DNA of 64,000 nt. Origin: Eledone cirrhosa (taxonomy: Eukaryota). The notes under the pieces were generated by a model that saw nothing but the letters and a program-made list of their open reading frames with translations, was not told the DNA's origin and ran no database searches. Position numbers and translations under genes: made by a program. Position 1 is the first letter of the stretch, and each line of letters begins with the position of its first letter. The stretch spans positions 13,082,001 through 13,146,000 of the forward strand of contig OZ024750.1 of the NCBI GenBank assembly GCA_964016885.1. The letters run 5' to 3'. Positions 8,509 through 57,412 of the stretch are shown in pieces.

Positions 8509-11500
8509 CTATTTTTTCAACAATTTCTTCTTTCACTGAGCGAAGATCTTCAAGGCCAGGAAGGATTACATTTGGTTCAACAAATGTATCTCCCTCGTGC
8601 TGTATTATTGGGAGAATTGATTTTAAAAGTGCACCCTCATCATCCAAAGGTAAATTGTGAAGTTCTGAATAGTTTAATACAGATTCATCAATTTTCTCAG
8701 CATGTTGTTTTGAATCAATGGATATAGTAACAACTTCAGAAGTAGTGGAATCAACTTCATCAGATACTGAAGGAACAATACTGGATGAGATACTAATGTC
8801 ACTTTGAGTTGTCTCAGGTTTACCAATATCAATAAATGTAATTTCAGATTTCTCAGTAGGTTTCTCATCAATATCAAGTTTAATAGATACTTCCTCTATG
8901 GTTTCTGGTTTAATATCAACTTGGGTCTTTTCAACTGGTTCCTTTGAAACTACATCTTCATGTACAATTTCAGAAGGAATAGTTTCTTTAATGGTAATCT
9001 CTTGTAAATTAGTGCTAACAACACCTACAGATTTAGGTATCTCTACATGTTCTTTCTCTATATCAGTTGTATGTTCTACAGTGTCAACAACCACATCTTC
9101 TGCTGTATGAATCTCTTCAATTACAGTAACTGATGTGTCTTTCTTATCAACAGGTACCTCAGTAGTTTCAACTTTTGATTCTTTATCTGATGGAATATCA
9201 AAGAATTCTTCTTGAGAAAGTACTTCATCAGCTGTACTCACAATACTTACAGCTGGAGCACTTATTATTGTCATTTCAGAAATTTCTTTCACATCTTTCT
9301 GTACAGGAATGACTTCACTTTCCTTGCTGATTTCAATAACACTATCACTTACAATTTCTTCAGGAGTTTCTTCAGTTGTAGACATTTTTGTAGAACTAAC
9401 AGAAATCTGAAAACTACTCTCTTCAACTGGTTTAACACTCACTGTATCTTTAAATGGTTCTTCCAATGTCTCTACAATACTTTCTTTTTCTACTTCTTCA
9501 CCTGTTGTAAATGTTTGTTCAGTTTTTATAACTATAGGTGTTTGATCTTCAGATGTGATTTTCTTAGAATCAATTGATACAACCATTTCAACAGGAATAT
9601 CACTGATTTTCTCTGGAGAAATATCTGTTTTACTTTGTTCAGTACTGGTACTTATAACTGAAGTAACTGTAACAGATTCAACCGTATCTGGTATAACTGA
9701 TTCAGATATATCTGTAGGTTGAATTTCAGTAACAACTTTTACTTCTTCTTCTTCTGGTTGTTTTACCTTTATTTCAGTTGTAGAAATTGTTGTAATATCA
9801 GTAACTTCTGGTTTCTTCTCTTTAATTTCCAGTTCTTTACCTTCAATATGAACTGTACTTTCAGGTACAATATCAAAGGTAGACATTTCTGGTGTAATTG
9901 TTGTTTCTTCTTTACTGATAATAATTGCATTTTGAGCAAAAGTTACCTGTTCTTTTTCAGTAGAAATAACATCTGGTACTTTAGGTGTAACTTGCATTTC
10001 AATATCACACACTGTTGTCTCCGGTTTATCAATATCAATAAATGTAATTTCAGATTTCTCAGTAGGTTTCTCACCAATGTCAAGTTGAATAGATACTTCC
10101 TCTTTGGTTTCTGGTTTAATATCAAATTCGATCTTTTCCACTGGTTCCTTTGAAACGACATCTTCATGTACAATTTCAGAAGGAATAGTTTCTTTAATGG
10201 TAATCTCTTGTAAATCAGTGCTAACAACACCTACAGATTTAGGTGTCTCTACATGTTCTTTCTCAATATCAGTTGTATGTTCTACAGTGTCAACAACCAC
10301 ATCTTCTGCTGTATGAATCTCTTCAATTACAGTAACTGGTGTGTCTTTCTTATCAACAAGTATCTCAGTAGTTTCAACTTTTGTTTCTTTATCTGATGGA
10401 ATATCAAAGAATTCTTCTTCAGAAAGTACTTCATCAGCTGTACTTACAATACTTACAGCTGGAGCACTTATTATTGTCATTTCAGAAATTTCTTTCACTT
10501 CTTTCTGTACAGGAATGACTTCACTTTCCTTGCTGATTTCAATAACACTATCACTTACAATTTCTTGAGGAGTTTCTTCAGTTGTAGACATTTTGGTAGA
10601 ACTCACAGAAATCTGAAAACTACTCTCTTCAACTGGTTGAACACTCACTGTATCTTTAAATGGTTCTTCCAATGTCTCTACAGTACTTTCTTTTTCTACT
10701 TCTTCACCTGTTGTATATGTTTGTTCAGTTTTTATAACTATAGGTGTTTGATCTTCTGATATGATTTTCTTAGAATCAATTGATACAACCATTTCAACAG
10801 GAATATCACTGATTTTCTCTGGAGAAATATCTGTTTTACTTTGTTCAGTACTGGTACTTATAACTGAAGTAACTGTAACAGATTCAACCTTATCTGGTAT
10901 AACTGATTCAGATATATCTGTATGTTGAATTTCAGTAACAACTTTTACTTCTTCTTCTTCTGGTTGTTTTACCTTTATTTCAGTTGTGGAAATTGTTGTA
11001 ATATCAGTAACTTCTGGTTTCTTCTCTTTAATTTCCAGTTCTTTACCTTCAATATGAACTGTACTTTCAGGTACAATATCAAAGGTAGACATTTCTGGTG
11101 TAATTGTTGTTTCTTCTTTACTGATAATAATTGCACTTTGAGCAAAAGTTACCTGTTCTTTTTCAGTAGAAATAACATCTGGTACTTTAGGTGTAACTTG
11201 CATTTCAATATCACACACTGTTGTCTCAGGTTTATCAATATCAATAAATGTAATTTCAGATTTCTCAGTAGGTTTCTCACCAATGTCAAGTTGGATAGAT
11301 ACTTCCTCTTGGGTTTCTGGTTTAATATCAAATTCGATCTTTTCCACTGGTTCCTTTGAAACGACATCTTCATGTACAATTTCAGAAGGAATAGTTTCTT
11401 TAATGGTAATCTCTTGTAAATTAGTGCTAACAACACCTACAGATTTAGGTATCTCTACATGTTCTTTCTCTATATCAGTTGTATGTTCTACAGTGTCAAC

Positions 11501-12765
11501 AACTACATCTTCTGCTGTATGAATCTCTTCAATTACAGTAACTGATGTGTCTTTCTTATCAACAGGTACCTCAGTAGTTTCAACTTTTGTTTCTTCATCT
11601 GATGAGATATCAAAGAATTCTTCTTCAGAAAGTACTTCATCAGCTGTACTCACAATACTTACAGCTGGAGCACTTATTATTGTCATTTCAGAAATTTCTT
11701 TCACATCTTTCTGTACAGGAGTGATTTCACTTTCTTTGCTGATTTCAACAACACTATCACTTACAATTTCTTCAGGTGTTTCCTCAGTTGTAGACATTTT
11801 CGTAGAACTCACAGAAATCTGAAAACTACTCTCTTCAACTGGTTGAACACTCACTGTATCCTTAAATGGTTCTTCCAATGTCTCTACAGTACTTTCTTTT
11901 TCTACTTCTTCATCTGTTGTATACGTTTGTTCAGTTTTTATAACTATAGGTGTTTGATCTTCAGATGTGATTTTCTTAGAATCAATTGATACAACCATTT
12001 CAACAGGAATATCACTGATTTTCTCTGGAGAAATATCTGTTTTACTTTGTTCAGTACTGGTACTTATAACTGAAGTAACTGTAACAGATTGAACCGTATC
12101 TGGTATAACTGATTCAGATATATCTGTAGGTTGAATTTCAGTAACAATTTTTACTTCTTCTTCTGGTTGTTTTACCTTTATTTCAGTTGTAGAAATTGTT
12201 GTAATATCAGTAACTTCTGGTTTCTTCTCTTTAATTTCCAGTTTTTTACCTTCAATATGAACTGTACTTTCAGGTACAATATCAAAGGTAGACATTTCTG
12301 GTGTAATTGTTGTTTCTTCTTTACTGATAATAATTGCACTTTGAGCAAAAGTTACCTGTTCTTTTTCAGTAGAAATAACATCTGGTACTTTAGGTGTAAC
12401 TTGCATTTCAATATCACACACTGTTGTCTCAGGTTTACCAATATCAATAAATGTAATTTCAGATTTCTCTGTAGGTTTCTCACCAATGTCAAGTTGAATA
12501 GACACTTCTTCTTTAGTTTCTGGTTTAATATCAACTTGTGTCTTTTCAATAATATCTTCTTTTTTATTGCTTACTACTTCCATCTTAAAAGTAGCAGGTT
12601 CCACTACATCTGAAGTTATCTTTATATTCATATCCATCTTAGCTGTTTCTAATGAGGGTGAACTTTCTGTTATTTGTTCAACTTCCTTTATGGCCATTTT
12701 TGGTATTTCTTTAATCTTCTCTTCTTCCACAGTCATTGTTATTTCTTTACGTACTGGCAAATCAC
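8509..12765 (-). CDS. Giant exon A (4257 nt, 1419 codons, phase 1-1) with ~3 copies of the 402-aa acidic repeat
   Basis: Uninterrupted ORF 8357..12760; acceptor tttatattAG|GTGATTTG and donor AAAATAG|GTATTT, both shared by all four giant exons; length divisible by 3. Confidence 0.85.
8810..12545. repeat. Coding tandem array, 1206-bp unit (exon A)
   Basis: Near-identical shadow ORFs recur every 1206 bp (8898/10104; 9943/11149). Confidence 0.95.
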
Positions 12766-14753: not shown

Positions 14754-14779
<26 letters not shown>

Positions 14780-14784
<5 letters not shown>

Positions 14785-15301: not shown

Positions 15302-15507
15302 TATATATATAGGAATGTTGTTTTGTACTATACCTGATTTCCATAAAAAATATATTAGATTTTAATATAAAAATAAAATAAATAAGAAAACATACCCGAG
15401 TTGAGGACAACTAAATTACGATGTTGGTAAAATATTCATATAAAGATTTTTGTAAATTTAAATACATACTTCCTGAGTTGGTTAACTGGCACAGCACAGT
15501 CCACAAT

Positions 15508-15544
<37 letters not shown>

Positions 15545-15581
15545 AATATATATATAAATATATATAAATATATATATAAAT

Positions 15582-15678
<97 letters not shown>

Positions 15679-15697
15679 AATATATATATATATAAAT

Positions 15698-15766
<69 letters not shown>

Positions 15767-15769
15767 AAT

Positions 15770-15826
<57 letters not shown>

Positions 15827-15892
15827 AATATAATTATATATATATATATATTTAAATATGTATATATGTGTATATATATATATGTGTGTGTG
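15508..15892. repeat. (CA)n/(AT)n compound microsatellite
   Basis: Direct inspection. Confidence 0.95.
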
Positions 15893-16018
15893 TAGCATGT
15901 GGACGTATATATCATAAAAGGCATAGTTATGATATCAAAATGGAGTTATTTGCAGACTTTAATTACGTAGATTCATCTTGTTATACAATTATATAAAGTC
16001 CACCATAAAATGTGTTTT

Positions 16019-16055
16019 TCTTACCTGAAAAAGAAACAAAAAGCAGCTGTTAGAT
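16019..16055 (-). promoter_or_regulatory. Candidate recursive splice site upstream of exon A (junction 16025/16024)
   Basis: Minus strand CTAACagctgctttttgtttctttttCAG|GTAAGA: branch-like CTAAC, pyrimidine tract, and AG directly followed by a strong donor. Confidence 0.7.
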
Positions 16056-19440: not shown

Positions 19441-19514
19441 AAATACTATATCAATTTTGCCAAGCAGTAATAGAGAGAAGTGATATATTATGTGCTATGT
19501 AAGATTATAATACC

Positions 19515-19819
19515 TAGGCAAAGCAACATGCATCTAAACGATAATACAAAGAAAGCATTTTCTTTTTATGTGGACAATGTTATACTCATTTCTCATCAGA
19601 AATAACAGAGACCCAACAAAACTATTTACACATTATTCAGCTGAAAGAGACATGAAACAAGTACACTGGTTAAGTACATTAAAAGACATCATAATACACG
19701 TTTGAAAGCATGCTACCAAGGCATTGGTAAGCTACAAAGATTTATGCTTGTGTAAATTCAAGCAGTAGCAGCGAGTGCAGTAGCATAAAGTAAATCCTGC
19801 ATAAGGCTCCATAAAATAC
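19515..19819 (-). promoter_or_regulatory. Conserved intronic block after the exon B donor (UGCAUG at 19527-19532)
   Basis: Homologous to the blocks after exons A, C and D. Confidence 0.6.
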
Positions 19820-22800
19820 CTATGTCTTCAACAACTTCTTCTTTGAATGACTGAATATCTTCAGGACCAGAAAGGCTTGTTTTCGATTCAATAATTATAT
19901 CTCCCTCATGTACGATGCTTGGCAGAATGGTTTTTAAGACAGTTGTTTCATCAGTTATATTAAATTCAGATGAAGCAGAAATGATATCAGATTCCAATAC
20001 ATCAGGTTTACCAATATCAATAAATGTAATTTCTGATTTCTCAGTAGGTTTCTCATCAATATCAAGTTTAATAGATACTTCCTCTTTAGTTTCAGGTTTA
20101 ATATCAACTTGTGTCTTTTCAACTGGTTCCTTTGAAACTACATCTTCACGTACAATTTCAGAAGGAATAGTTTCTTGAATGGTAATCTCTTGTAAATCAG
20201 TGCTAACAACACCTACAGATTTAGGTATCTCTACATCTTCTTTTTCTATATCAGTTATATGTTCTACAGTGTCAACAACCAGATCTTCTGCTGTATGAAT
20301 CTCTTCAATTACAGTAACTGGTGTGTCTTTCTTATCAACAGGTATCACAGTAGTTTCAACTTTTGTTTCTTTATCTGATGGAATATCAAAGAATTCTTCT
20401 TCAGAAATTACTTCATCAGCTGTACTGACAATACTTACAGCTGGAGCACTTATTATTGACATTTCAGAAATTTCTTTCACATCTTTCTGTTCAGGAAAGA
20501 CTTCACTTTCCTTGCTGATTTCAATAACACTATCACTTACAATTTCTTCAGGTGTTTCTTCAGTTGTAGACATTTTCGTAGAACTAACGGAAATCTGAAT
20601 ACTACTCTCTTCAACTGGTTGAACACTCACTGTGTCTTTAAATGGTTCTGCCAATGTCTCTACAGTACTTTCTTTTTCTACTTCTTCACCTGTTGTAAAT
20701 GTTTGTTCAGTTTTTATAACTATAGGTGTTTGGTCCTCAGATGTGATTTTCTTAGAATCAATTGATACAACCATTTCAACAGGAATATCACTGATTTTCT
20801 CTGGAGAAATATCTGTTTTACTTTGTTCAGTGCTGGTACTTATAACTGAAGTAACTGTAACAGATTCAACCTTATCTGGTATAACTGATTCAGATATATC
20901 TGTAGGTTGAATTTCAGTAACAACTTTTACTTCTTCTTCTTCTGGTTGTTTTACCTTTATTTCAGTTGTAGAAATTGTTGTAATATCAGTAACTTTTGGT
21001 TTCTTCTCTTTAATTTCCAGTTCTTTACCTTCAATATGAACTGTACTTTCAGGTACAATATCAAATGTAGACATTTCTGGTGTAATTGTTGTTTCTTCTT
21101 TACTGATGATAATGTCACTTTTAGCAACAGTTACCTGTTCTTTTTCTATAGAAATAACATCCGGCACTGTAGGTGTAACTTGCATTTCAATATCACAGAC
21201 TGTTGTCTCAGGTTTACCAATATCAATAAATGTAATTTCAGATTTCTCAGTAGGTTTCTCACCAATGTCAAGTTGGATAGATACTTCCTCTTTAGTTTCT
21301 GGTTTAATATCAACTTGTGTCTTTTCAACCGGTTCCTTTGAAACTACATCTTCATGTACAATTTCAGAAGGAATAGTTTCTTTAATGGTAATCTCTTGTA
21401 AATCAGTGCTAACAACACCTACAGTTTGAGGTATCTCTACATCTTCTTTCTCTATATCAGTTGTATGTTCTACAGTGTCAACAACCACATCTTCTGCTGT
21501 ATGAATCTCTTCAATTACAGTCACTGATGTGTCTTTCTTATCAACAGGTATCTCAGTAGTTTCAACTTTTGTTTCTTTATCTGATGGAATATCAAAGAAT
21601 TCTTCTTCAGAAAGTACTTCATCAGCTGTACTTACAATACTTACAGATGGAGCACTTATTATTGTCATTTCAGAAATTTCTTTCACATCTTTCTGTTCAG
21701 GAAAGACTTCACTTTCCTTGCTGATTACAACGACACTATCACTTACAATTTCTTCAGGCGTTTCCTCAGTTGTAGACATTTTGGTAGAACTCACAGAAAT
21801 CTGAAAACTACTTGCTTCAACTGGTTTAACGCTCACTGTATCTTTAAATGGTTCTTCCAATGTCTCTACAGTACTTTCTTTTTCTACTTCTTCACCTGTG
21901 GTATATGTTTGTTCAGTTTTTATAACTATAGGTGTTTGGTCCTCAGATGTGATTTTCTTAGAATCAATTGATATAACCATTTCAACAGGAATATCACTGA
22001 TTTTCTCTGGAGAAATATCTGTTTTACTTTGTTCAGTGCTGGTACTTATAACTGAAGTAACTGTAACAGATTCAACCGTATCTGGTATAACTGATTCAGA
22101 TATATCTGTAGGCTGAATTTCAGTAACAACTTTTACTTCTTCTTCTTCTGGTTTTTTTACCTTTATTTCAGTTGTAGAAATTGTTGTAATATCAGTAACT
22201 TCTGGTTTCTTCTCTTTAATTTCCAGTTCTTTACCTTCAATATGAACTGTACTTTCAGGTACAATATCAAAGGTAGATATTTCTGGTGTAATTGTTGTTT
22301 CTTCTTTACTGATAATAATTCCACTTTTATCAAAAGTTATCTGTTCTTTTTCAGTAGAAATAACATCTGGTACTTTAGGTGTAACTTGCATTTCAATATC
22401 ACAGACTGTTGTCTCAGGTTTACCAATATCAATAAATGTAATTTCAGATTTCTTTATAGGTTTCTCACCAATGTCAAGTTGGATAGATACTTCCTCTTTA
22501 GTTTCTGGTTTAATATCAACTTGTGTCTTTTCAACTGGTTCCTTTGAAACTACATCTTCATGTACAGTTTCAGAAGGAATAGTTTCTTTAATGGTAATCT
22601 CTTGTAAATCAGTGCTAACAACAGCTACAGTTTGAGGTATCTCTACATCTTCTTTCTCTATATCAGTTGTATGTTCTACAGTGTCAACAACCACATCTTC
22701 TGCTGTATGAATCTCTTCAATTACAGTAACTGGTGTGTCTTTCTTATCAACAGGTATCTCAGTTGTTTCAACTTTTGATTCTTTATCTGATGGAATATCA

Positions 22801-25204
22801 AAGAATTCTTCTTCAGAAAGTACTTCATCAGCTGTACTTACAATACTTACAGCTGGAGCACTTATTATTGTCATTTCAGAAATTTCTTTCACATCTTTCT
22901 GTACAGGAATGACTTCACTTTCTTTGCTGATTACAACGACACTATCACTTACAATTTCTTCAGGTGTTTCCTCAGTTGTAGACATTTTGGTAGAACTCAC
23001 AGAAATCTGAAAACTACTCTCTTCAACTGGTTGAACACTCACTGTATCTTTAAATGGTTCTTCCAATGTCTCTACAGTACTTTCTTTTTCTACTTCTTCA
23101 CCTGTTGTAAATGTTTGTTCAGTTTTTATAACTATAGGTGTTTGGTCTTCAGATGTGATTTTCTTAGAATCAATTGATACAACCATTTCAACAGGAATAT
23201 CACTGATTTTCTCTGGAGAAATATCTGTTTTACTTTGTTCAGTACTGGTACTTATAACTGAAGTAACTGTAACAGATTCAACCTTATCTGGTATAACTGA
23301 TTCAGATATATCTGTAGGTTGAATTTCAGTAACAATTTTTACTTCTTCTTCTTCTGGTTGTTTTACCTTTATTTCAGTTGTAGAAATTGTTGTAATATCA
23401 GTAACTTCTGGTTTCTTCTCTTTAATTTCCAGTTCTTTACCTTCAATATGAACTGTACTTTCAGGTACAATATCAAAGGTAGACATTTCTGGTGTAATTG
23501 TTGTTTCTTCTTTACTGATAATAATTCCACTTTTAGCAACAGTTACCTGTTCTTTCTCGGTAGAAATAACATCTGGTACTTTAGGTGTAACTTGCATTTC
23601 AATTTCACCGACAGTTGTCTCAGGTTTACCAATATCAATAAATGTAATTTCAGATTTCTCTGTAGGTTTCTCACCAATGTCCAGTTGGATAGATACTTCC
23701 TCTTTAGTTTCAGGTTTAATATCAACTTGTGTCTTTACCACTGGTTCCTTTGAAACAACATCTTCATGTACAATTTCAGAAGGAATAGTTTCTTTAATGG
23801 TAATCTCTTGTAAATCAGTGCTAACAACACCTACAGTTTGAGGTATCTCTACATGTTCTTTCTCTATATCAGTTGTATGTTCTACAGTGTCAACAACCAC
23901 ATCTTCTGCTGTATGAATCTCTTCAATTACAGTCACTGATGTGTCTTTCTTATCAACAGGTACCTCAGTAGTTTCAACTTTTGTTTCTTCATCTGATGAG
24001 ATATCAAAGAATTCTTCTTCAGAAAGTACTTCATCAGCTGTACTTACAATACTTACAGCTGGAGCACTTATTATTGTCATTTCAGTAATTTCTTTCACAT
24101 CTTTCTGTACAGGAGTGATTTCACTTTCTTTGCTGATTTCAACAACTCTATCACTTACAATTTCTTCAGGAGTTTCTTCAGTTGTAGACATTTTGGTAGA
24201 ACTCACAGAAATCTGAATACTACTCTCTTCAACTGGTTGAACACTCACTGTATCTTTAAATGGTTCTTCCAATGTCTCTACAGTACTTTCTTTTTCTACT
24301 TCTTCACCTGTTGTAAATGTTTGTTCAGTTTTTATAACTATAGGTGTTTGGTCTTCAGATGTGATTTTCTTAGAATCAATTGATACAACCATTTCAACAG
24401 GAATATCACTGATTTTCTCTGGAGAAATATCTGTTTTACTTTGTTCAGTACTGGTACTTATAACTGAAGTAACTGTAACAGATTTAACCGTATCTGGTAT
24501 AACTGATTCAGATATATCTGTAGGTTGAATTTCAGTAACAACTTTTACTTCTTCTTCTTCTGGTTGTTTTACCTTTATTTCAGTTGTAGAAATTGTTGTA
24601 ATATCAGTAACCTCTGGTTTCTTCTCTTTAATTTCCAGTTCTTTACCTTCAATATGAACTGTACTTTCAGGTACAATATCAAAGGTAGACATTTCTGGTG
24701 TAATCGTTGTTTCTTCTTTACTGATAATAATTCCACTTTGAATAACAGTTACCTGTTCCTTTTCGGTAGAAATAATATCTGGTACTTTAGGTGTAACTTG
24801 CATTTCAATATCACACACTGTTGTCTCAGGTTTACCAATATCAATAAATGTAATTTCTGATTTCTCAGTAGGATTCTCTCCAATATCAAGTTGGATAGAT
24901 TCTTCCTCTTTAGTTTCTGGTTTAATATCAACTTGTGGTGTTTCTTTACTTGAAATTTGTATATCTATTCTCTTATCTATATTTTCAAATATTGATGGAC
25001 CTGTCTTTATTTGCTCTCTCTGAGAAATATAAACTTCATCTGATGTTACTATTTCCTTTTCAATATGAAAGTCTTCAGTTGTTTCTAATGAGGGTGAAAT
25101 TTCTGTTATTGTTTCAACTTTCTGTATAGCCATTTCTGGTATTTCTTTACTCTTCTCCTCTTCTTCCACAGTCATTGTTATTTCTTTTTGTACTGGTAAT
25201 TCAC
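19820..25204 (-). CDS. Giant exon B (5385 nt, 1795 codons, phase 1-1) with ~4 repeat copies
   Basis: ORF 19758..25175; tttatattAG|GTGAATTA; GACATAG|GTATTT; length divisible by 3. Confidence 0.85.
20000..24935. repeat. Coding tandem array, 1206-bp unit (exon B)
   Basis: Shadow ORF starts at 20323, 21529, 22735, 23941. Confidence 0.95.
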
Positions 25205-27818: not shown

Positions 27819-27850
27819 TCTTACCTGCAATAAACAAAAAAAGGATCACA
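27819..27850 (-). promoter_or_regulatory. Candidate recursive splice site upstream of exon B (junction 27825/27824)
   Basis: Minus strand gatcc(T)n-gtttattgCAG|GTAAGAtacc. Confidence 0.7.
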
Positions 27851-28409
27851 TGAATGACATTATTCAACATTAGATGGATAAAAACTATTAGAATAAATAC
27901 ATTTTAAATATCTTAAAATATAAATTGCAACAGAAAAAAAAACTATTAGAATTTGTAAAGAAATGGTTAAATAATTCTTATATAAAACAGTTTTACGGTG
28001 GCACAAAATAAAATATTTAGATTTTAAATTAAATATGCTGCAATTGAATATGATGAACAATTTAACAAGAGTTCGTTGTTATGTATATACTCGATCCATT
28101 ATAAATTAAATTTCTACTTTTAGACATTATACATTTAGAAGCTATATAAATTCAACTGTTGGGCTAGATTAAATATATATTTTATGAACAGAATTCTTGA
28201 TTAAAATTTTATAAATTCAGAAACTAAACAGAGGTCAATCTAATCAATTATTTTAATTATTTTACATAAGTTTCAGATATACTGAGGAATTAAAATGAGA
28301 GAAGACCTCCTTAACAATACCCAAGAAACCAAGGGAATTGCTACAACTATGAAATAAAACAGGAGTATAGAGTATGATTACTGATCACTTTCTATTACAA
28401 CTATATATA

Positions 28410-30120: not shown

Positions 30121-30159
30121 ACATGTCACATACAATAATTATATATATGTATATATATG

Positions 30160-30462
30160 TAGGCAAAGCATCATGCACAATGTAATAATACAAAGAAAGC
30201 ATGTTCATTTGATATAGACAATGTTATAGACTATGGTGTAAATAATAAGAGACCCAACATAACAACTGACAAATTATTGAGCTGAAAAAGACATACGAAA
30301 AATATACACTGGTTAAATAGAGTAAAAGACATAATTATACAGATATAAAAGCATGCTACGAAGGCATTGGTAAGCTATGTGAATTGATGCTTCTATAAAT
30401 TTAAGCAGTAGAAGCAAGTGTAGAAGCATAGACTAAATCCTGGATAATTTTCCACAAAATAC
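30160..30462 (-). promoter_or_regulatory. Conserved intronic block after the exon C donor (UGCAUG at 30172-30177)
   Basis: Homologous to the blocks after exons A, B and D. Confidence 0.6.
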
Positions 30463-39400: not shown

Positions 39401-42400
39401 ACCAATATCAATAAATGTAATTTCAGATATCTCAGTAGGTTTCTCACCAATGTCAAGTTGTAGAGATACTTCCTCTTTAGTTTCTGGTTTAATATCAACT
39501 TGTGTCTTTTCAACTGGTTCCTTTGAAATTACATCTTCATGTACAATTTCAGAAGGAATAGTTTCTTTAATGTTAATCTCTTGTAAATCAGTGCTAACAA
39601 CACCTACAGTTTGAGGTATCTCTACATCTTCTTTCTCTATATCAGTTGTATGTTCTACAGTGTCAACAACCACATCTTCTGCTGTATGAATCTCTTCAAT
39701 TACAGTAACTGATGTGTCTTTCTTATCAACAGGTACCTCAGTAGTTTCAACTTTCGTTTCTTTATCCGATGGAATATCAAAGAGTTCTTCTTCAGAAAGT
39801 ACTTCATCAGCTGTACTCACGATACTTACAGCTGGAGCACTTATTATTGTCATTTCAGAAATTTCTTTCACATCTTTCTGTTCAGGAATGACTTCACTTT
39901 CCTTGCTGATTACAACGACACTATCACTTACAATTTCTTCAGGTGTTTCCTCAGTTGTAGACATTTTGGTAGAACTCACAGAAATCTGAATACTACTCTC
40001 TTCAACTGGTTGAACACTCACTGTATCTTTAAATGGTTCTTCCAATGTCTCTACAGTACTTTCTTTTTCTACTTCTTCACCTGTTGTAAATGTTTGTTCA
40101 GTTTTTAATATTATAGGTGTTTGGTCTTCAGATGTGATTTTCTGAGAATCAATTGATATAACCATTTCAACAGGAATATCACTGATTTTCTCTGGAGAAA
40201 TATCTGTTTTACTTTGTTCAGTACTGGTACTTATAACTGAAGTAACTGTAACAGATTCAACCGTATCTGGTATAACTGATTCAGATATATCTGTAGGTTG
40301 AATTTCAGTAACAACTTTTACTTCTTCTTCTTCTGGTTGTTTTACCTTTATTTCAGTTGTAGAAATTGTTGTAATATCAGTAACTTCTGGTTTCTTCTCT
40401 TTAATTTCCAGTTCTTTACCTTCAATATGAACTGTACTTTCAGATACAATATCAAAGGTAGATATTTCTGGTGTAATTGTTGTTTCTTCTTTAGTGATAA
40501 TAATTTCACTTTTAGCAACAGTTACCTGTTCTTCATCGGTAGAAATAATATCTGGTACTTTAGGTGTAACTTGCATTTCAATTTCACACACTGTTGTCTC
40601 AGGTTTACCAATATCAATAAATGTAATTTCAGATATCTCAGTAGGTTTCTCACCAATGTCAAGTTGGAGAGATACTTCCTCTTTAGTTTCTGGTTTAATA
40701 TCAACTTGTGTTTTTTCAACTGGTTCCTTTGAAACTACATCTTCATGTACAATTTCAGAAGGAATAGTTTCTTTAATGTTAATCTCTTGTAAATCAGTGC
40801 TAACAACACCTACAGTTTGAGGTATCTCTACATCTTCTTTCTCTATATCAGTTGTATGTTCTACAGTGTCAACAACCACATCTTCTGCTGTATGAATCTC
40901 TTCAATTACAGTAACTGATGTGTCTTTCTTATCAACAGGTACCTCAGTAGTTTCAACTTTCGTTTCTTTATCCGATGGAATATCAAAGAGTTCTTCTTCA
41001 GAAAGTACTTCATCAGCTGTACTCACGATACTTACAGCTGGAGCACTTATTATTGTCATTTCAGAAATTTCTTTCACATCTTTCTGTTCAGGAATGACTT
41101 CACTTTCCTTGCTGATTACAACGACACTATCACTTACAATTTCTTCAGGTGTTTCCTCAGTTGTAGACATTTTGGTAGAACTCACAGAAATCTGAATACT
41201 ACTCTCTTCAACTGGTTGAACACTCACTGTATCTTTAAATGGTCCTTCCAATGTCTCTACAGTACTTTCTTTTTCTACTTCTTCACCTGTTGTAAATGTT
41301 TGTTCAGTTTTTAATACTATAGGTGTTTGGTCTTCAGATGTGATTTTCTGAGAATCAATTGATACAACCATTTCAACAGGAATATCACTGATTTTCTCTG
41401 GAGAAATATCTGTTTTACTTTGTTCAGTACTGGTACTTATAACTGAAGTAACTGTAACAGATTCAAGCGTATCTGGTATAACTGATTCAGATACATCTGT
41501 AGGTTGAATTTCAGTAACAACTTTTACTTCTTCTTCTTCTGGTTGTTTTACCTTTATATCAGTTGTGGAAATTGTTGTAATATCAGTAACTTCTGGTTTC
41601 TTCTCTTTAATTTCCAGTTCTTTACCTTCAATATGAACTGTACTTTCAGGTACAATATCAAAGGTAGATATTTCTGGTGTAATGGTTGTTTCTTCTTTAG
41701 TGATAATAATTTCACTTTTAGCAACAGTTACCTGTTCTTCATCGGTAGAAATAATATCTGGTACTTTAGGTGTAACTTGCATTTCAATTTCACACACTGT
41801 TGTCTCAGGTTTACCAATATCAATAAATGTAATTTCAGATATCTCAGTAGGTTTCTCACCAATGTCAAGTTGTAGAGATACTTCCTCTTTAGTTTCTGGT
41901 TTAATATCAACTTGTGTCTTTTCAACTGGTTCCTTTGAAACTACATCTTCATGTACAATTTCAGAAGGAATAGTTTCTTTAATGGTAATCTCTTGTAAAT
42001 CAGTGCTAACAACACCTACAGTTTGAGGTATCTCTACATCTTTCTCTATATCAGTTGTATGTTCTACAGTGTCAACAACTACATCTTCTGCTGTATGAAT
42101 CTCTTCAATTACAGTAACTGATGTGTCTTTCTTATCAACAGGTAACTCAGTAGTTTCAACTTTCGTTTCTTTATCCGATGGAATATCAAAGAGTTCTTCT
42201 TCAGAAATTACTTCATCAGCTGTACTCACAATACTTACAGCTGGAGCACTTATTATTGTCATTTCAGAAATTTCTTTCACATCTTTCTGTTCAGGAATGA
42301 CTTCACTTTCTTTGCTGATTTCAACAACACTATCACTTACAATTTCTTCAGGTGTTTCCTCAGTTGTAGACATTTTGGTAGAACTCACAGAAATCTGAAA

Positions 42401-44571
42401 ACTACTTGCTTCAACTGGTTTAACGCTCACTGTATCTTTAAATGGTTCTTCCAATGTCTCTACAGTACTTTCTTTTTCTACTTCTTCACCTGTTGTAAAT
42501 GTTTGTTCGGTTTTTATAACTATAGGTGTTTTATCTTCAGATGTGATTTTCTTAGAATCAATTGATATAACCATTTCAACAGGAATATCACTCATTTTCT
42601 CTGGAGGAATATCACTCATTTTCTCTGGGGAAATATCTGTTTTACTTTGTTCAGTACTAGTACTTATAACTGAAGTAACTGTAACAGATTCAACCGTATC
42701 TGGTATAACTGATTCAGATATATCTGTAGGTTGAATTTCAGTAACAACTTTTACTTCTTCTTCTTCTGGTTGTTTTACCTTTATTTCAGTTGTGGAAATT
42801 GTTGTAATATCAGTAACTTCTGGTTTCTTCTCTTTAATTTCCAGTTCTTTACCTTCAATATGAACTGTACTTTCAGGTACAATATCAAAGGTAGATATTT
42901 CTGGTGTAATTGTTGTTTCTTCTTTAGTGATAATAATTTCACTTTTAGCAACAGTTACCTGTTCTTCATCAGTAGAAATAACATCTGGTACTTTAGGTGT
43001 AACTTGCATTTCAATTTCACACACTGTTGTCTCAGGTTTACCAATATCAATAAATGTAATTTCAGATTTCTCTGTAGGTTTCTCACCAATGTCAAGTTGG
43101 ATAGATACTTCCTCTTTAGTTTCAGGTTTAATATCAACTTGTGTCTTTTCAACTGGTTCCTTTGAAACTACATCTTCATACACAATTTCAGAAGGAATAG
43201 TTTCTTTAATGGTAATCTCTTGTAAATCAGTGCTAACAACACCTACAGTTTGAGATATCTCTACATCTTCTTTCTCTATATCAGTTGTATGTTCTACTGT
43301 GTCAACAACTACATCTTCTGCTGTATGAATCTCTTCAATTACAGTAACTGATGTGTCTTTCTTATCAACAGGTACCTCAGTAGTTTCAACTTTCGTTTCT
43401 TTATCCGATGGAATATCAAAGATTTCTTCATCAGAAAGTACTTCATCAGCTGTACTTACAATACTTACAGCTGGGGCACTTATTATTGTCATTTCAGAAA
43501 TTTCTTTCACATCTTTCTGTTCAGGAATGACTTCACTTTCTTTGCTGATTTCAACAACACTATCACTTACAATTTCTTCAGGTGTTTCCTCAGTTGTAGA
43601 CATTTTGGTAGAACTCACAGAAATCTGAATACTACTCTCTTCAACTGGTTTAACACTCACTGTATCTTTAAATGGTTCTTCACATGTCTCTACAGTACTT
43701 TCTTTTTCTACTTCTTCACCTGTTGTAAATGTTTGTTCGGTTTTTATAACTATAGGTGTTTTATCTTCAGATGTGATTTTCTTAGAATCAATTGATATAA
43801 CCATTTCAACAGGAATATCACTCATTTTCTCTGGAGAAATATCTGTTTTACTTTGTTCAGTACTAGTACTTATAACTGAAGTAACTGTAACAGATTCAAC
43901 CGTATCTGGTATAACTGATTCAGATATATCTGTAGGTTGAATTTCAGTAACAACTTTTACTTCTTCTTCTTCTGGTTGTTTTACCTTTATTTCAGTTGTG
44001 GAAATTGTTGTAATATCAGTAACTTCTGGTTTCTTCTCTTTAATTTCCAGTTCTTTACCTTCAATATGAACTGTACTTTCAGGTACAATATCAAAGGTAG
44101 ATATTTCTGGTGTAATTGTTGTTTCTTCTTTAGTGATAATAATTTCACTTTTAGCAACAGTGACCTCTTCTTCATCGGTAGAAATAACATCTGGTACTTT
44201 AGGTGTAACTTGCATTTCAATTTCACACACTGTTGTCTCAGGTTTACCAATATCAATAAATGTAATTTCAGATTTCCCTGTAGGTTTCTCACCAATGTCA
44301 AGTTGGATAGATACTTCCTCTTTAGTTTCTGGTTTAATATCAACTTGTATCTTTTCAATAATATCTTCTTTTTTATCTCTTACTACTTCCATCTCATAAG
44401 CAGCAGTTTCCACTATATCTGAAGTTATCTTTATATCTATCTTAGCAGTTTCTAATAAAGGTGAACCTTCTGTTATTTCTTTAACTTTCTCTATAGCCTT
44501 TTCTGTCATTTCTTTAATCTTCTTATCTTCTTCCAAAGTGATTGTTATTTCTCTATCAACTGGCATATCAC
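30463..44571 (-). CDS. Giant exon C (14109 nt, 4703 codons, phase 1-1) with ~11.5 repeat copies
   Basis: ORF 30401..44566; tttatattAG|GTGATATG; GATATAG|GTATTT; length divisible by 3. Confidence 0.85.
30630..44355. repeat. Coding tandem array, 1206-bp unit with 2412-bp higher-order structure (exon C)
   Basis: Shadow ORF starts at 34890, 36096, 37302, 38508, 39714, 40920; alternating variants at 36680/39092/41504. Confidence 0.95.
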
Positions 44572-46029
44572 CTAATATAAATCAAATATTTATTAAGTAA
44601 ACATTCTCATAAAATAATCGTTTGTTTGTTTCCATGTTTTTTTTTATCCTCCATTATTGTGAGAGTAAAAGCAGTCATCCATGAAAAAAATGAATTTTTC
44701 ACTTTCTTACATATGAAAGTATTCATACCATGCTTTATAGTGAGGTTTGTAAATAATGCTGTTTTTTTAAGGAAATTTTTCGTGGTATTTTATGTTTTTG
44801 TTTTTGAGGTTTATCAATTATTATTGAAATTTAGATATCAATAGAAATATTCATTTAATTGGTTTTATGCAGGAGAAAAATGAAATGCTGAGAATATAGA
44901 AATCTATGGATAATCATAATATTTAATAATTAAATTTAAAATCTCGACATGACCTGTAGATTAATCTGTTACATTATAAATATCATCCACTTCAATTTAT
45001 AGTATTAGTCAGTGAGTTGTATTAATCTTGTCTTTCACGATTACCCATCTTTCTATTAAAATATATTTATTCTAAATACACATCTGCCTGTATAAAGACA
45101 ATTTAATTTCAACACGATCTTTCTTTTTCTTATGTTTCTTAACCTTACTCTCTTTTCAACATGATTGTGGATATTTCATAGTAAAAAAGAATTAGAGAGA
45201 TTATACATGTGTGTTTTTATGATACATGTACATTTGTATAAAACCATACACTAATGCAACCGATGCATGTGTGTTTGTCTATAAAACCATATACTAATGC
45301 AACAGATGCATGTATATTTGTGTATACACTTATACAAAAGATGCAACCATGGTTTATATATTTTAATGTGATTTTAATTCCCAAAAGGGAATTAGAAAAC
45401 TTTAAAAAAAGGATTCCACCAAGCATGATAAATGATTACATGACTGAAACTACTGAAGATATCTTAATTGTTGTTTTACATCTAAAAAATAATTTTATTT
45501 CTAAATTTTAAATCATAGAATTAAAATGAAGGAATGTTTATACTAAATATTGGTTTTATTATTTATGGAATTGCTTTATAAAATATACAAAAGTATTCTT
45601 CTTCCAACATAATGATATGCAAACAAATCAAAATAAGAATAAACAACAACAATGTGATTGAACATCTGAAAAGTATTTTAAATTAATATGAAATAAAAAT
45701 TATAAAAAAATTCATTGTAAACCAAAACTCTTCTAAATTTCTACTGTACCTGGATACTAAAAAAAAAACATTTATATTCTTGTAAATAGAAATTATAATA
45801 TTACATACCTGCGATGTAGAAAATTAAATCACAACTTTGATATATCATTCAAATTAAGTTTTAATACTTACATCTTCTGTTGAATATCTCTACCTTTTTC
45901 TGACATATGTATATAATATTGTGTATGGATATCATAATTGAAATATAACTTGTAATACTTATTATGGTACAGTAAGAAGAATCATTCTGGTAATATTTGG
46001 TAACAGAAATTCCATATGAAAAATTGATA

Positions 46030-46070
46030 TCTTACCTGAAATAAACAAAAAAAAAGCCACGTGAAAGATA
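46030..46070 (-). promoter_or_regulatory. Candidate recursive splice site upstream of exon C (junction 46036/46035)
   Basis: Minus strand ctttcacgtggc(T)n-gtttatttCAG|GTAAGAtatc. Confidence 0.7.
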
Positions 46071-50059: not shown

Positions 50060-50347
50060 CTAGGTGAAGCTGCATGCACTATGTACTAATTAATACAAAG
50101 AAAGCAACTTCTTTCATATTGACAAAGTTATCAGAAATTACAGAGACCCAACATAATAACTGACAAATTATTGAGCTGAAAGAGACATGAAAACATATAC
50201 AATGGTTAAGTATTTGAAAGACAACACAGTTGACAGCATGCTACCTAGGCATTGGTAAGCTACATCAATTGATGCTTGTGTAAACTCAAGCAGAGGCAGT
50301 GAGTGTAGAAGCACGAATTAAATCCTGCATAATGTTCTACAAAATAC
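50060..50347 (-). promoter_or_regulatory. Conserved intronic block after the exon D donor (UGCAUG at 50073-50078)
   Basis: Homologous to the blocks after exons A, B and C. Confidence 0.6.
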
Positions 50348-53300
50348 CTATGACTTCGACAACTTGTTCTTTGAATGACTGCAGATCAGCAGGAACAGGA
50401 AGAATAGTTTCACCCTCAATAACATCGTGTTCATGTTGAATACTTTGTGATGTGATTGATGTTTCTTCTTTGCTGTGAGGCATTATATCGATTTCAGAAA
50501 CAGCTTTATCATCAATACTTTTCTTACTAATCATAATTCCACTTTCATTAAACGTTATCTGTTCTTTTTCGGTAGAAATAACATCTGGTACTTCAGGAGT
50601 AATTTGCATTTCAATTTTACACACTGTTGTCTCAGGTTTACCAATATCAATAAATGTAATTTCAGATTTCTCAGTAGGTTTCTCATCAATATCAAGTTTA
50701 ATAGATACTTCCTGTATGGTTTCTGGTTTAATATCAACTTGTGTCTTTTCAACTGGTTCCTTTGAAACAACATCTTCATGTACAATTTCAGAAGGAATAG
50801 TTTCTTTAATATCAAATATAACTGATTCAGATATATCTGTAGGTTGAATTTCAGTAACAACTTTTACTTCTTCTTCTTCTGGTTGTTTTACATTTATTTC
50901 AGTTGTGGAAATTGTTGTAATATCAGTAACTTCTGGTTTCTTCTCTTGAATTTCCAGTTCTTTACCTTCAATATGAACTGTACTTTCAGGTACAATATCA
51001 AAGGTAGATATTTCTGGTGTAATTGTTGTTTCTTCTTTACTGATAATAATTTCACTTTTAGCAAGAGTTACCTGTTCTTTTTCAGTAGAAATAACATCTG
51101 GTACTTTAGGTGTAACTTGTATTTCAATATCACACACTGTTGTCTCAGGTTTACCAATATCAATAAATGTAATTTCAGATTTCTCAGTAGGATTCACACC
51201 AATGTCAAGTTGGATAGATACTTCCTCTTTAGTTTCAGGTTTAATATCAACTTGTGTCTTTTCAACTGGTTCCTCTGAAATGACATCTTCATGTACAATT
51301 TCAGAAGGAATAGTTTCTTTAATGGTAATCTCTTGTAAATCAGTGCTAACAACACCTACAGTTTGAGATATCTCTACATCTTCTTTCTCTATATCAGTTG
51401 TATGTTCTACAGTGTCAACAACCACATCTTCTGCTGTATGAATCTCTTCAATTACAGTAACTGATGTGTCTTTCTTATCAACAGGTACCTCAGTAGTTTC
51501 AACTTTCGTTTCTTTATCCGATGGAATATCAAAGAGTTCTTCTTCAGAAAGTACTTCGTCAGCTGTACTTACAATACTTACAGCTGGAGCACTTATTATT
51601 GTCATTTCAGAAATTTCTTTCACGTCTTTCTGTACAGGAATGACTTCACTTTCCTTGCTGATTTCAACAACACTATCACTTACAATTTCTTCAGGTGTTT
51701 CCTGAGTTGTAGACATTTTGGTAGAACTCACAGAAATCTGAATACTACTCTCTTCAACTGGTTGAACACTCACTGTATCTTTAAATGGTTCTTCCAATGT
51801 CTCTACAGTACTTTCTTTTTCTACTTCTTCACCTGTTGTAAATGTTTGTTCAGTTTTTATAACTATAGGTGTTTGATCTTCTGATATGATTTTCTTAGAA
51901 TCAATTGATACGACCATTTCAACAGGAATATCACTGATTTTCTCTGGAGAAATATCTGTTTTACTTTGTTCAGTACTGGTACTTATAACTGAAGTAACTG
52001 TGACAGATTCAACCTTATCTGGTATAAATGATTCAGATATATCTGTAGGTTGAATTTTAGTAACAACTTTTACTTCTTCTTCTTCTGGTTGTTTTACCTT
52101 TATTTCAGTTGTAGAAATTGTTGTAATATCAGTAACTTCTGGTTTCTTCTCTTTAATTTCCAGTTCTTTACCTTCAATATGAACTGTACTTTCAGGTACA
52201 ATATCAAAGGTAGATATTTCTGGTGTAATTGTTGTTTCTTCTTTCCTTATAATAATTTCACTTTTAGCAACAGTTACCTGTTCTTCATCGGTAGAAATAA
52301 CATCTGGTACTTTAGGTGTAACTTGCATTTCAATTTCACACACTGTTGTCTCAGGTTTACCAATATCAATAAATGTAATTTCAGATATCTCAGTAGGTTT
52401 CTCACCAATGTCAAGTTGGATAGATACTTCCTCTTTAGTTTCTGGTTTAATATCAACTTGTGTCTTTTCAACTGGTTCCTCTGAAATGACATCTTCATGT
52501 ACAGTTTCAGAAGGAATAGTTTCTTTAATGGTAATCTCTTGTAAATCAGTGCTAACAACACCTACAGTTTGAGGTATCTCTACATCTTCTTTCTCTATAT
52601 CAGTTGTATGTTCTACAGTGTCAACAACCACATCTTCTGCTGTATGAATCTCTTCAATTACAGTAACTGATGTGTCTTTCTTATCAACAGGTACCTCAGT
52701 AGTTTCAACTTTCGTTTCTTTATCCGATGGAATATCAAAGAGTTCTTCTTCAGAAAGTACTTCATCAGCTGTACTAACAATACTCACAGCTGGAGCACTT
52801 ATTATTGTCATTTCAGAAATTTCTTTCACATCTTTCTGTTCAGGAATGACTTCACTTTCCTTGCTGATTTCAACAACACTATCACTTACAATTTCTTCAG
52901 GTGTTTCTTCAGTTGTAGACATTTTGGTAGAACTCACAGAAATCTGAAAACTCCTCTCTTCAACTGGTTGAACACTCACTGTATCTTTAAATGGTTCTTC
53001 CAATGTCTCTACAATACTTTCTTTTTCTACTTCTTCACCTGTGGTATATGTTTGTTCAGTTTTTATAACTATAGGTGTTTGATCTTCTGATATGATTTTC
53101 TTAGAATCAATTGATATAACCATTTCAACAGGAATATCACTGATTTTCTCTGGAGAAATATCTGTTTTACTTTGTTCAGTACTGGTACTTATAACTGAAG
53201 TAACTGTAACAGATTCAACCTTATCTGGTATAACTGATTCAGATATATCTGTAGGTTGAATTTCAGTAACAACTTTTACTTCTTCTGGTTGTTTTACCTT

Positions 53301-56300
53301 TATTTCAGTTGTAGAAATTGTTGTAATATCAGCAACATCTGGTTTCCTCTCTTTAATTTCCAGTTCTTTACCTTCAATATGAACTGTACTTTCAGGTACA
53401 ATATCAAAGGTAGATATTTCTGGTGTAATTGTTGTTTCTTCTTTACTTATAATAATTTCACTTTTAGCAACAGTTACCTGTTCTTCATCGGTAGAAATAA
53501 CATCTGGTACTTTAGGTGTAACTTGCATTTCAATTTCACACACTGTTGTCTCAGGTTTACCAATATCAATAAATGTAATTTCAGATTTCTCTGTAGGATT
53601 TTCATCAATGTCAAGTTGGATAGATACTTCCTCTTTAGTTTCAGGTTTAATATCAACTTGTGTCTTTTCAACCGGTTCCTCTGAAATGACATCTTCATGT
53701 ACAGTTTCAGAAGGAATAGTTTCTTTAATGGTAATCTCTTGTAAATCAGTGCTAACAACACCTACAGTTTGAGATATCTCTACATCTTCTTTCTCTATAT
53801 CAGTTGTATGTTCTACAGTGTCAACAACCACATCTTCTGCTGTATGAATCTCTTCAATTGCAGTAACTGATGTGTCTTTTTTATCAACAGGTACCTCAGT
53901 AGTTTCAACTTTTGATTCTTTATCTGATGGAATATCAAAGAATTCTTCTTCAGAAAGTACTTCATCAGCTGTACTCACAATACTTACAGCTGGAGCACTT
54001 ATTATTGTCATTTCAGAAATTTCTTTCACATCTTTCTTTTCAGGAATGACTTCATTTTCTTTGCTGATTTCAACAACACTATCACTTTCAATTTCTTCAG
54101 GTGTTTCTTCAGTTGTAGACATTTTGGTAGAACTCACAGAAATCTGAATACTACTCTCTTCAACTGGTTGAACACTCACTGTATCTTTAAATGGTTCTTC
54201 CAATGTCTCTACAGTACTTTCTTTTTCTACTTCTTCACCTGTTGTATATGTTTGTTCAGTTTTTATAACTATAGGTGTTTGGTCCTCAGAAGTGATTTTC
54301 TTAGAATCAATTGATACAACCATTTCAACAGGAATATCACTGATTTTCTCTGGAGAAATATCTGTTTTACTTTGTTCAGTACTGGTACTTATAACTGAAG
54401 TAACTGTAACAGATTCAACCGTATCTGGTATAACTGATTCAGATATATCTGTAGGTTGAATTTCAGTAACAACTTTTACTTCTTCTTCTTCTGGTTGTTT
54501 TACCTTTATTTCAGTTGTAGAAATTGTTGTAATATCAGTAACCTCTGGTTTCTTCTCTTTAATTTCCAGTTCTTTACCTTCAATATAAACTGTACTTTCA
54601 GGTACAATATCAAAGGTAGACATTTCTGGTGTAATTGTTGTTTCTTCTTTACTGATAATAATTTCACTTTTAGCAACAGTTACCTGTTCTTCATCGGTAG
54701 AAATAATATCTGGTACTTTAGGTGTAACTTGCATTTCAATTTCACACACTGTTGTCTCAGGTTTACCAATATCAATAAATGTAATTTCAGATTTCTCTGT
54801 AGGATTCTCACCAATGTCAAGTTGGATAGATACTTCCTCTTTAGTTTCAGGTTTAATATCAACTTGTGTCTTTTCAACTGGTTCCTCTGAAATGACATCT
54901 TCATGTACAGTTTCAGAAGGAATAGTTTCTTTAATGGTAATCTCTTGTAAATCAGTGCTAACAACACCTACAGTTTGAGGTATCTCTACATCTTCTTTCT
55001 CTATATCAGTTGTATGTTCTACAGTGTCAACAACCACATCTTCTGCTGTATGAATCTCTTCAATTACAGTAACTGATGTGTCTTTCTTATCAACAGGTAC
55101 CTCAGTAGTTTCAACTTTTGATTCTTTATCTGATGGAATATCAAAGAATTCTTCTTCAGAAAGTACTTCATCAGCTGTAGTCACAATACTTACAGCTGGA
55201 GCACTTATTATTGTCATTTCAGAAATTTCTTTCACATCTTTCTGTACAGGAATGACTTCACTTTCCTTGCTGATTTCAACAACACTATCACTTACAATTT
55301 CTTCAGGTGTTTCCTCAGCTGTAGACATTTTGGTAGAACTCACAGAAATCTGAATACTACTCTCTTCAACTGATTGAACACTCACTGTATCTTTAAATGG
55401 TTCTTCCAATGTATCTACAGTACTTTCTTTTTCTACTTCTTCACCTGTGGTATATGTTTGTTCAGTTTTTATAACTATAGGTGTTTGATCTTCTGATATG
55501 ATTTTCTTAGAATCAATTGATACAACCATTTCAACAGGAATATCACTGATTTTCTCTGGAGAAATATCTGTTTTACTTTGTTCAGTACTGGTACTTATAA
55601 CTGAAGTAACTGTAACAGATTCAACCTTATCTGGAATAACTGATTCAGATATATCTGTAGGTTGAATTTCAGTAACAACTTTTACTTCTTCTTCTGATTG
55701 TTTTACCTTTATTTCAGTTGTAGAAATTGTTGTAATATCAGTAACTTCTGGTTTCTTCTCTTTAATTTCCAGTTCTTTACATTCAATATGAACTGTACTT
55801 TCAGGTACAATATCAAAGGTAGACATTTCTGGTGTAATTGTTGTTTCTTCTTTACTGATAATAATGTCATTTTTAGCAACAGTTACCTGTTCTTTTTCAG
55901 TAGAAATAATATCTGGTACTTTAGGTGCAACTTGCATTTCAATTTCACACACTGTTGTCTCAGGTTTACCAATATCAATAAATGTAATTTCAGATTTCTC
56001 AGTAGGATTCACACCAATGTCAAGTTGGATAGATACTTCCTCTTTAGTTTCTGGTTTAATATCAACTTGTGTCTTTTCAACTGGTTCCTTTGAAACTATA
56101 TCTTCATGTACAGTTTCAGAAGGAATAGTTTCTTTAATGGTAATCTCTTGTAAATCAGTGCTAACAACACCTACAGTTTGAGGTATCTCTACATCTTCTT
56201 TCTCTATATCAGTTGTATGTTCTACAGTGTCAACAACCACATCTTCTGCTGTATGAATCTCTTCAATTACAGTAACTGATATGTCTTTCTTAACAACAGG

Positions 56301-57412
56301 TATTTCAGTAGTTTTAACTTTTGTTTCTTCATCTGATGAGATATCAAAGAATTCTTCTTCAGAAAGTACTTCGTCAGCTGTACTCACAATACTTACAGCT
56401 GGAGCACTTATTATTGTCATTTCAGAAATTTCTTTCACATCTTTCTGTACAGGAATGACTTCACTTTCCTTGCTGATTTCAACAACTCTATCACTTACAA
56501 TTTCTTCAGGTGTTTCCTCAGTTGTAGACATTTTGGTAGAACTCACAGAAATCTGAATACTACTCTCTTCAACTGGTTTAACACTCACTGTATCTTTAAA
56601 TGGTTCTTCCAATGTCTCTACAGTACTTTCTTTTTCTACTTCTTCACCTGTTGTAAATGTTTGTTCAGTTTTTATAACTATAGGTGTCTGGTCTTCAGAT
56701 GTGATTTTCTTAGAATCAATTGATACAACCATTTCAACAGGAATATCACTGATTTTCTCTGGAGAAATATCTGTCTTACTTTGTTCAGTACTGGTACTTA
56801 TAACTGAAATAACTGTAACAGATTCAACCTTATCTGGTATAACTGATTCAGATATATCTGTAGGTTGAATTTCAGTAACAACTTTTACTTCTTCTTCTTC
56901 TGGTTGTTTTACCTTTATTTCAGCGGTAGAAATTGTTGTAATATCAGTAACTTCTGGTTTCTTCTCTTTAATTTCCAGTTCTTTACCTTCAATATGAACT
57001 GTACTTTCAGGTACAATGTCAAAGGTAGACATTTCTGGTGTAATTGTTGTTTCTTCTTTACTGATAATGATTTCACTTTTAGCAACAGTTACCTGTTCTG
57101 TTTCTGTAGAAATAATATGTGGCACTTTAGCTGTAACTTGTATTTCAATTTGGTCCTTGTGAGGAACATAGATTTCATTTGGCGTTACTATTTCTGTTTC
57201 AATATATTGTTGTTCTGTAGTTTCTTGGAGTACTTTTGTTTCATAAGTTACTGTTTCCACTACATCTGATGTTACTTTTATATCCATATTAATGCCTTTT
57301 GTTATTTCGAATGAGGGTGAAACCTCTTCTATTACCATTTCTGTTATTTCTCTCTTTGTTTCATCATCTTCTTTGTCTCTCTTTCTTATTTCTCTATCGA
57401 CTGGCAAATCAC
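50348..57412 (-). CDS. Giant exon D (7065 nt, 2355 codons, phase 1-1) with ~5.5 repeat copies
   Basis: ORF 50337..57407; tttatatcAG|GTGATTTG; GTCATAG|GTATTT; length divisible by 3; a stop follows within a few codons if the donor is not used. Confidence 0.85.
50530..57140. repeat. Coding tandem array, ~1206-bp unit (exon D)
   Basis: Shadow ORF starts at 51466, 52672, 53872, 55078, 56281. Confidence 0.95.

Follow-up and report, generated by a model that had tools for sequence, protein, structure and literature searches.

The window analysed here, 64,000 nt of Eledone cirrhosa contig OZ024750.1 (assembly GCA_964016885.1, positions 13,082,001 to 13,146,000), carries on its minus strand four giant exons of a gene that is likely of the titin family. 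E1 (50348..57412) measures 7065 nt or 2355 codons and contains four full units of a ~402-residue repeat besides partial ones, E2 (30463..44571) measures 14109 nt or 4703 codons with 11 full units, E3 (19820..25204) 5385 nt or 1795 codons with four, and E4 (8509..12765) 4257 nt or 1419 codons with three; together they amount to 10,272 codons, and the introns between them are 5.3-7.1 kb long. An original prediction, made from the letters of the window, had given these positions and lengths, with every exon a multiple of three, in phase 1-1 and bounded by a common acceptor (tttatatYAG|GTGA) and donor (ATAG|GTATTT), and all of this is confirmed for 4/4 exons, each with a stop-free frame. Its statement that any subset of the exons keeps frame with a downstream 39-nt microexon (5156-5118) and Ig exons likewise holds on our exon model. 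As the exons are paralogues, their shared phase and motifs represent one inherited fact and not four. The 14.1-kb E2 had been called exceptional; it is very large but no record, as human TTN contains an exon of 17,106 bp (PMC12198301) and MUC16 one of more than 21 kb (PMC3467050).

All four exons are arrays of the same acidic unit of 1206 nt, present in 22 full copies that diverge by a mean of 3.5-4.6% between exons and 1.7-4.2% within an exon. The unique exon ends and the intron blocks described below differ by ~22-35% among the four copies. On these comparisons E1 to E4 are tandem copies of one module, and because the units are far more alike than the exon ends and intron blocks, the pattern suggests an old duplication of the module followed by repeat exchange. 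Of the 209 distinct single-base codon variants in the 22 units, 127 are missense, 82 synonymous and none a stop, against an expectation of 6.5 stops, with a pN/pS of 0.52 overall and 0.40-0.67 for the variants private to each exon, and all alignment gaps among units are multiples of three, which argues that all four giant exons are under coding selection. Genome matches to the start of E1 fall only within the window (27 matches; 3.0-Gb genome). At ~34600-39400 in E2, units 5 and 7 are identical and units 6 and 8 differ by 0.1%, which may reflect a very recent 2.4-kb duplication or assembly uncertainty. Within the exons there are 22 donor-like and 0 acceptor-like sites, and internal splicing that removes the repeats was set aside on this ground. 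Nearly every unit carries a donor-like 9-mer (22 sites) whose match to U1, at 7/9 positions, exceeds that of the real donors; it must be suppressed, as its use would shift the frame.

The encoded protein is likely a flexible acidic spacer. P+E+V+K make up 44-45% of the residues in 4/4 exons, above the operational cut-off of >40% for a PEVK-type spacer (10.1101/2024.09.30.615857), although E and V drive this value and P contributes only ~6%; E+D account for ~24% and I+V+T for 37-39%, the net charge is about -0.15 per residue, and Trp is absent. At 0.35 nm per residue the contour length would be 0.5-1.65 micrometres per exon and 3.6 micrometres in total. A single-sequence structure model of one unit says little (mean predicted local distance difference test score of 29). 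A Pfam scan of the E4 start and its read-through found no family, and an Atlas search with the repeat unit gave no usable match. In protein searches limited to about 2000-2400 residues, 0/7990 candidates matched the E4 start and 1/28 matched an Ig exon; none of the 151 proteins obtained from the searches aligned at ≥50% over ≥50 residues near the giant exons, and no cephalopod protein model among them covers these exons.

Behind each giant donor lies a conserved intron block of ~300 nt (minus strand), at 50060..50347 after E1, 30150..30462 after E2, 19500..19819 after E3 and 8173..8508 after E4. Across the four copies 169 of its 285 gapless columns are invariant, as compared with 32/53 at the coding end of the exon and 6/51 in the intron beyond. 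The block contains YGCY 6-10 times per 330 nt (background mean of 2.1 in 1406 windows) and TGCATG in 4/4 copies, motifs that we take to be those of the muscle splicing factors MBNL and RBFOX, respectively. It also contains an acceptor-like site 172-189 nt past the donor, at 50176, 30282, 19641 and 8320, which is followed by a stop after two codons behind E1, E2 and E3 and after 12 codons behind E4. The presence of a conserved, regulatory-looking block at every exon makes regulated use likely. It does not recur elsewhere in the genome beyond simple repeats and is not a dispersed repeat. A coding tail produced by reading through the donor (hydrophobic peptides of 3, 20, 20 and 50 residues) was dropped, because the mismatches are spread across codon positions 1-3 (22, 14 and 19) and E1 stops at once. 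A consensus RNA fold of the block had 2/50 pairs changed on both sides, leaving the structure unsupported. A 7-nt stretch ~100 nt into the intron (50347-50240 and three paralogous places) could pair with the donor in 4/4 copies, with no covariation.

A second set of signals stands 1464-3259 nt before each giant exon, where in 4/4 modules a pyrimidine tract and YAG are followed immediately by a GTAAGA donor. These putative ratchet-point-like sites lie on the minus strand at 58895..59110 (acceptor end 59082 with the donor adjoining; donor-like sites after 58955 and 58895), 45809..46065 (site 46036; donor-like after 45872 and 45809), 27580..27855 (site 27825; donor-like after 27649 and 27580) and 15396..16050 (site 16025; donor-like after 15470 and 15396, with a TA expansion between). 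The two aligned donor-like sites that follow each of them fall at +127 to +629, and the segments that they close off break the frame or carry stops (the +555 segment is a multiple of three but has 6 stops). Under strict settings, 464,000 bases of sense sequence contain 4 sites with a pyrimidine tract and YAG|GTRAG, one before each giant exon, compared with 1 antisense site and a mean of 0.17 in 30 shuffles. The sites would allow a full 81-kb skip to proceed stepwise, with 13.0, 18.2, 11.8 and 10.9 kb removed in the last four steps. This block, too, has no recurrence elsewhere in the genome beyond simple repeats and is not a dispersed repeat. As aligned, the copied module spans the exon together with flanking intron signals, which the original prediction had overlooked.

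The arrangement resembles the ratchet points or RS-exons of Drosophila (Ubx, kuz, Bx), in which an acceptor and a donor are juxtaposed, a second donor lies downstream and the enclosed segment is non-coding (PMC8605326). The Drosophila second donor is found ~50 nt downstream, whereas the octopod donor-like sites are farther away (PMC8605326); and fly ratchet points sit in very long, mostly constitutive introns (PMC6110457), whereas the putative octopod sites occur once per duplicated module before a giant coding exon. Every giant exon starts with GTGA (57412, 44571, 25204, 12765), so that the inclusion joint is itself donor-like (5-7 of 9 positions), as in re-spliced Ubx exons. Introns 1-3 each hold one near-palindromic element (46502-46645, 25442-25613 and 14777-15013), mutually unrelated by BLAST.

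Four sequencing runs of unrecorded kind from one study, X1 and X2 among them, were available; X2 looks like DNA, and the spliced contig of X1 is the sole reason for treating that run as RNA. Contigs of X1, in which rare forms are lost, were compared with window positions 1-9300; joints and alleles served as evidence, whereas contig depth and uncovered bins were left aside. One of them, of 1446 nt, consists of the pieces 8837-8509, 4401-4292, 3976-3778 and 1539-1242 and thus joins E4 to three Ig exon pieces, showing that in this sample the E4 donor was used and E4 was an internal exon. The gaps in this contig amount to 39 + 71 unlisted letters; the first equals a 39-nt phase 1-1 microexon after E4 (5118..5156) and the second the sum of two microexons of 34 and 37 nt (2326..3119; 3119-3086 and 2362-2326), all on the minus strand. 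A second X1 contig carries four alleles, three of which occur in 0/3 of the E4 copies spanning that stretch, while the set of four matches exactly 3 E2 units and 1 E3 unit; this suggests that E2 or E3 is expressed, provided that the sampled animal and the assembly do not differ.

The gene context was read from the window and 200 kb on each side. Same-strand exons over ~410 kb (loci L011 to L040) run from spectrin-repeat through Ig and PEVK-like exons to the giants and on to Ig, Fn3 and kinase-like exons, a context that supports the titin-like host gene originally proposed. Besides the giants there are three large PEVK-like exons of 1.1-4.5 kb, and 30 Ig-like motif matches are spread across the locus, with Pfam I-set (PF07679) detected in 2/2 Ig exons scanned (E 1e-19 and 2e-8). 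Downstream of the spacer follow 139 Fn3-like motif matches and a twitchin-like kinase exon, with exon candidates in between. One spectrin exon shows 93% identity to a CRAL-TRIO protein of Octopus bimaculoides and 70-78% identity to proteins from other molluscs that are CCDC141-like or unnamed, and 12/26 candidates match the SEC14/spectrin (SESTD1-CCDC141-like) N-terminal part, the named ones being CRAL-TRIO or CCDC141-like mollusc proteins. Because of these matches the host gene is assigned as likely of the connectitin/sallimus type within the titin family (PMC12198301). From orientation and compatible exon candidates we infer that the whole stretch forms one transcript, which may encode one full-length titin of vertebrate type in a protostome.

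Other minus-strand features of the window are two exons that together hold one Ig I-set domain (3778..4401; 4401-4292 and 3976-3778), an Ig I-set exon (1242..1539), and two small exons (384..802; 802-723 and 458-384) with a motif that we take to be IQ-like. Beyond these small exons, ~3.8-7.4 kb downstream of window base 1 (L021), lies a 3.6-kb acidic repeat exon built from a different unit. Among Ig exons (L025:7546-9201, minus strand) stands a candidate exon of 551 codons, in phase 1-1 and with short Asp/Arg/Gly repeats, which is possibly another cassette. Two further kinase-like matches were noted, one on C1 (55%) and one 212 kb further along C10 (42%). On the other side, 27 kb upstream of E1, an exon (L003:516-793, minus strand) has a phase-1 donor after 132 nt; read through this donor, it continues into a hydrophobic, cysteine-rich tail and then a stop. 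The tail would either anchor a short isoform in the membrane or be UGC-rich intron sequence that happens to translate that way; this sequence contains 8 YGCY and 1 TGCATG, and an Atlas search with this exon gave no usable match.

We favour, at slightly better than even confidence, a reading in which each module acts as a regulated unit by which 1,400-4,700 spacer residues are put in or left out, likely in a limited set of combinations. An upstream exon would first be spliced onto the acceptor|donor site that precedes a giant exon by 1.5-3.3 kb, and this step would regenerate a strong donor near the giant acceptor. The renewed donor would then either take that acceptor or move to the next site 11-18 kb away, such that in a full skip up to 81 kb would be removed stepwise, while the block behind the giant donor would set donor use via muscle splicing factors. 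It would be enough for a few of the 16 possible forms to occur. Spacer length would in this way tune I-band, sarcomere or filament length, as for Drosophila sallimus. A bolder version, in which a duplicable module of ratchet point, giant elastic exon and regulated donor with a stop option dials a single vertebrate-like full-length octopod titin over up to 3.6 micrometres of spacer contour, and in which recursive splicing selects giant exons, appears rather doubtful to us.

Several observations weigh against regulated use of the modules. The scan pattern for the ratchet-like sites was set after the sites had been seen in the alignment, the loosest setting returns 5 sense and 4 antisense sites, and the four copies of each motif share one ancestor and are conserved among paralogues only; because the pattern is post hoc and the ancestor shared, the weight of these sites lies in their position and retention. 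Only 2/4 of them have a branch-like motif, and the host introns are short compared with the very long ones of the fly unless exons are skipped. The giant donors match U1 at 6/9 positions, inside the range of 12 other donors (6-8), and are therefore not clearly weak. Phase 1-1 and lengths divisible by three are also found in 5/5 modelled upstream exons and the 39-nt microexon (6/6 neighbours), and as symmetric exons are the default in this part of the gene, frame symmetry is no evidence for skipping. The original prediction had envisaged up to 16 combinations acting as a length dial; the frame permits this and the conserved intron blocks make regulated use likely, but no skipping junction is present among the X1 contig matches listed. 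The junction peptides it had named as a check, IG-DMPVDR and IG-ELPVQK, turn out to be serial-inclusion joints, and residues upstream of the joint are needed to tell which exon donated.

The explanation that survives best beside regulated use is that all four exons are included serially in nearly every transcript and the intron signals only aid recognition of exons too long for exon definition; length would then differ between species or alleles by repeat expansion and not between muscles. In the one RNA-like contig E4 is continuous with the microexon and the exons beyond, and together with the E2/E3 alleles in the same run this contig fits serial inclusion equally well. The local default of symmetry agrees with it too, as does the finding that many large exons are constitutive, 42% of those in human (PMC3467050). 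In the fly homologue, however, such exons are skipped (10.1101/2024.09.30.615857). Each giant donor is, moreover, backed by motif clusters and a ~300-nt block conserved like coding sequence. A block of this kind exceeds the usual needs of constitutive exons, and we consider inclusion of all four exons as the general rule to be rather improbable.

If instead each giant donor took the acceptor 172-189 nt downstream, the modules would act as stop-or-continue switches, the stop within 2-12 codons yielding nested truncated proteins, which we would liken to kettin or Novex-3, or substrates for decay. The acceptor-like 13-mer is kept in 4/4 modules and occurs 4 times in 464 kb of sense and 0 times in antisense sequence, a branch-like motif accompanies it in 3/4 and a stop follows in 4/4; tandemly duplicated terminal exons with proximal acceptors are also found in Drosophila pip and PGRP-LC (PMC9013439). 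Yet the single spliced contig bypasses the proximal acceptor after E4, acceptor-like sites arise about once per kb in these introns (36 in 36,705 nt), and a canonical poly(A) signal lies within 500 nt at only 2/4, so we judge such a switch unlikely.

Somewhat less probable again is that the upstream part belongs to a separate transcript ending 27 kb before E1, with the sites before the giants serving as donors of short first exons and the giants chosen by promoter or by strict mutual exclusion. The upstream exon L003:516-793 can indeed read on to a stop, the interval from there to E1 showed no exon-like frame of at least 90 codons having acidic/lysine content, and a Met is present among the first 24 residues of every giant exon. 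That same exon, however, also has its phase-1 donor with the same motif cluster behind it, the sites before the giants resemble acceptors in their pyrimidine tracts and in AG-free zones of 20-118 nt, and no docking-selector complement of at least 10 nt was found in the four regions tested. An assembly artefact or dead duplicates are very improbable, for although the identical or 0.1%-different E2 units mean that a 2.4-kb block may be over- or under-collapsed, the exon ends and intron blocks differ by ~22-35% among copies, 30.8 kb are free of stops, and a DNA-like contig spans the E4 donor and its intron (7131-8837).

Regulated use of the modules would have a precedent, as titin length control by splicing is already known. 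Drosophila flight muscle skips PEVK exons of sallimus, and these exons set the length of the sarcomere (10.1101/2024.09.30.615857, PMC12063666); the length of PEVK also acts back on that of the sarcomere and A-band (10.1101/2024.09.30.615857). The octopod gene shares with zormin/kettin/sls the spectrin-type N-terminal part, Ig runs and large PEVK-rich I-band exons (PMC12198301, 10.1101/2024.09.30.615857), but its spacer is made of four paralogous single exons that repeat one 402-aa unit, with Fn3-like and kinase-like exons behind them on the same strand; skipping is demonstrated for sallimus, whereas the octopod exons are known from the genome and one spliced contig. The PEVK region of vertebrate titin is spread across many small exons and is proline-rich, in contrast to the acidic octopod spacer with its ~6% P. 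Common to both systems (N2A, N2B and N2BA in vertebrates, where a 17-kb exon also occurs) is that exon choice sets, or in the octopod would set, spring length between a Z-disc part and an Ig/Fn3/kinase part (PMC12198301). The mutually exclusive arrays of Dscam, Mhc and pip also consist of tandem, equal-phase paralogous exons with copied intron elements (PMC9013439); the octopod exons differ in their threefold length range, in introns long enough for serial splicing and in that no docking-selector pairing of at least 10 nt was found in the four regions tested.

What is new here is a cephalopod set of four giant paralogues, each of them duplicated along with a ratchet-like site and a regulatory-looking block. 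Our literature search, which had most subscription papers and supplements outside its scope (the supplement of one titin tree may include a cephalopod model), returned no description of the locus or of cephalopod recursive splicing. If our reading is correct, the copied ratchet-like sites would extend recursive splicing from the removal of long introns to the choice of giant exons, and thanks to the unique exon ends the idea of a length dial could be tested on muscle RNA that already exists. In cephalopods contraction speed appears to be adjusted through the lengths of filaments and sarcomeres and not through myosin isoforms, with squid thick filaments of 7.4 micrometres in the arm and 0.81 in the tentacle; the passages covered of that account name paramyosin content as a correlate of filament length and no length-setting molecule (PMC4757648). 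A duplicable module of the kind described here would, if true, offer a molecular handle on this tuning of filament length that cephalopods appear to employ in place of myosin isoforms.

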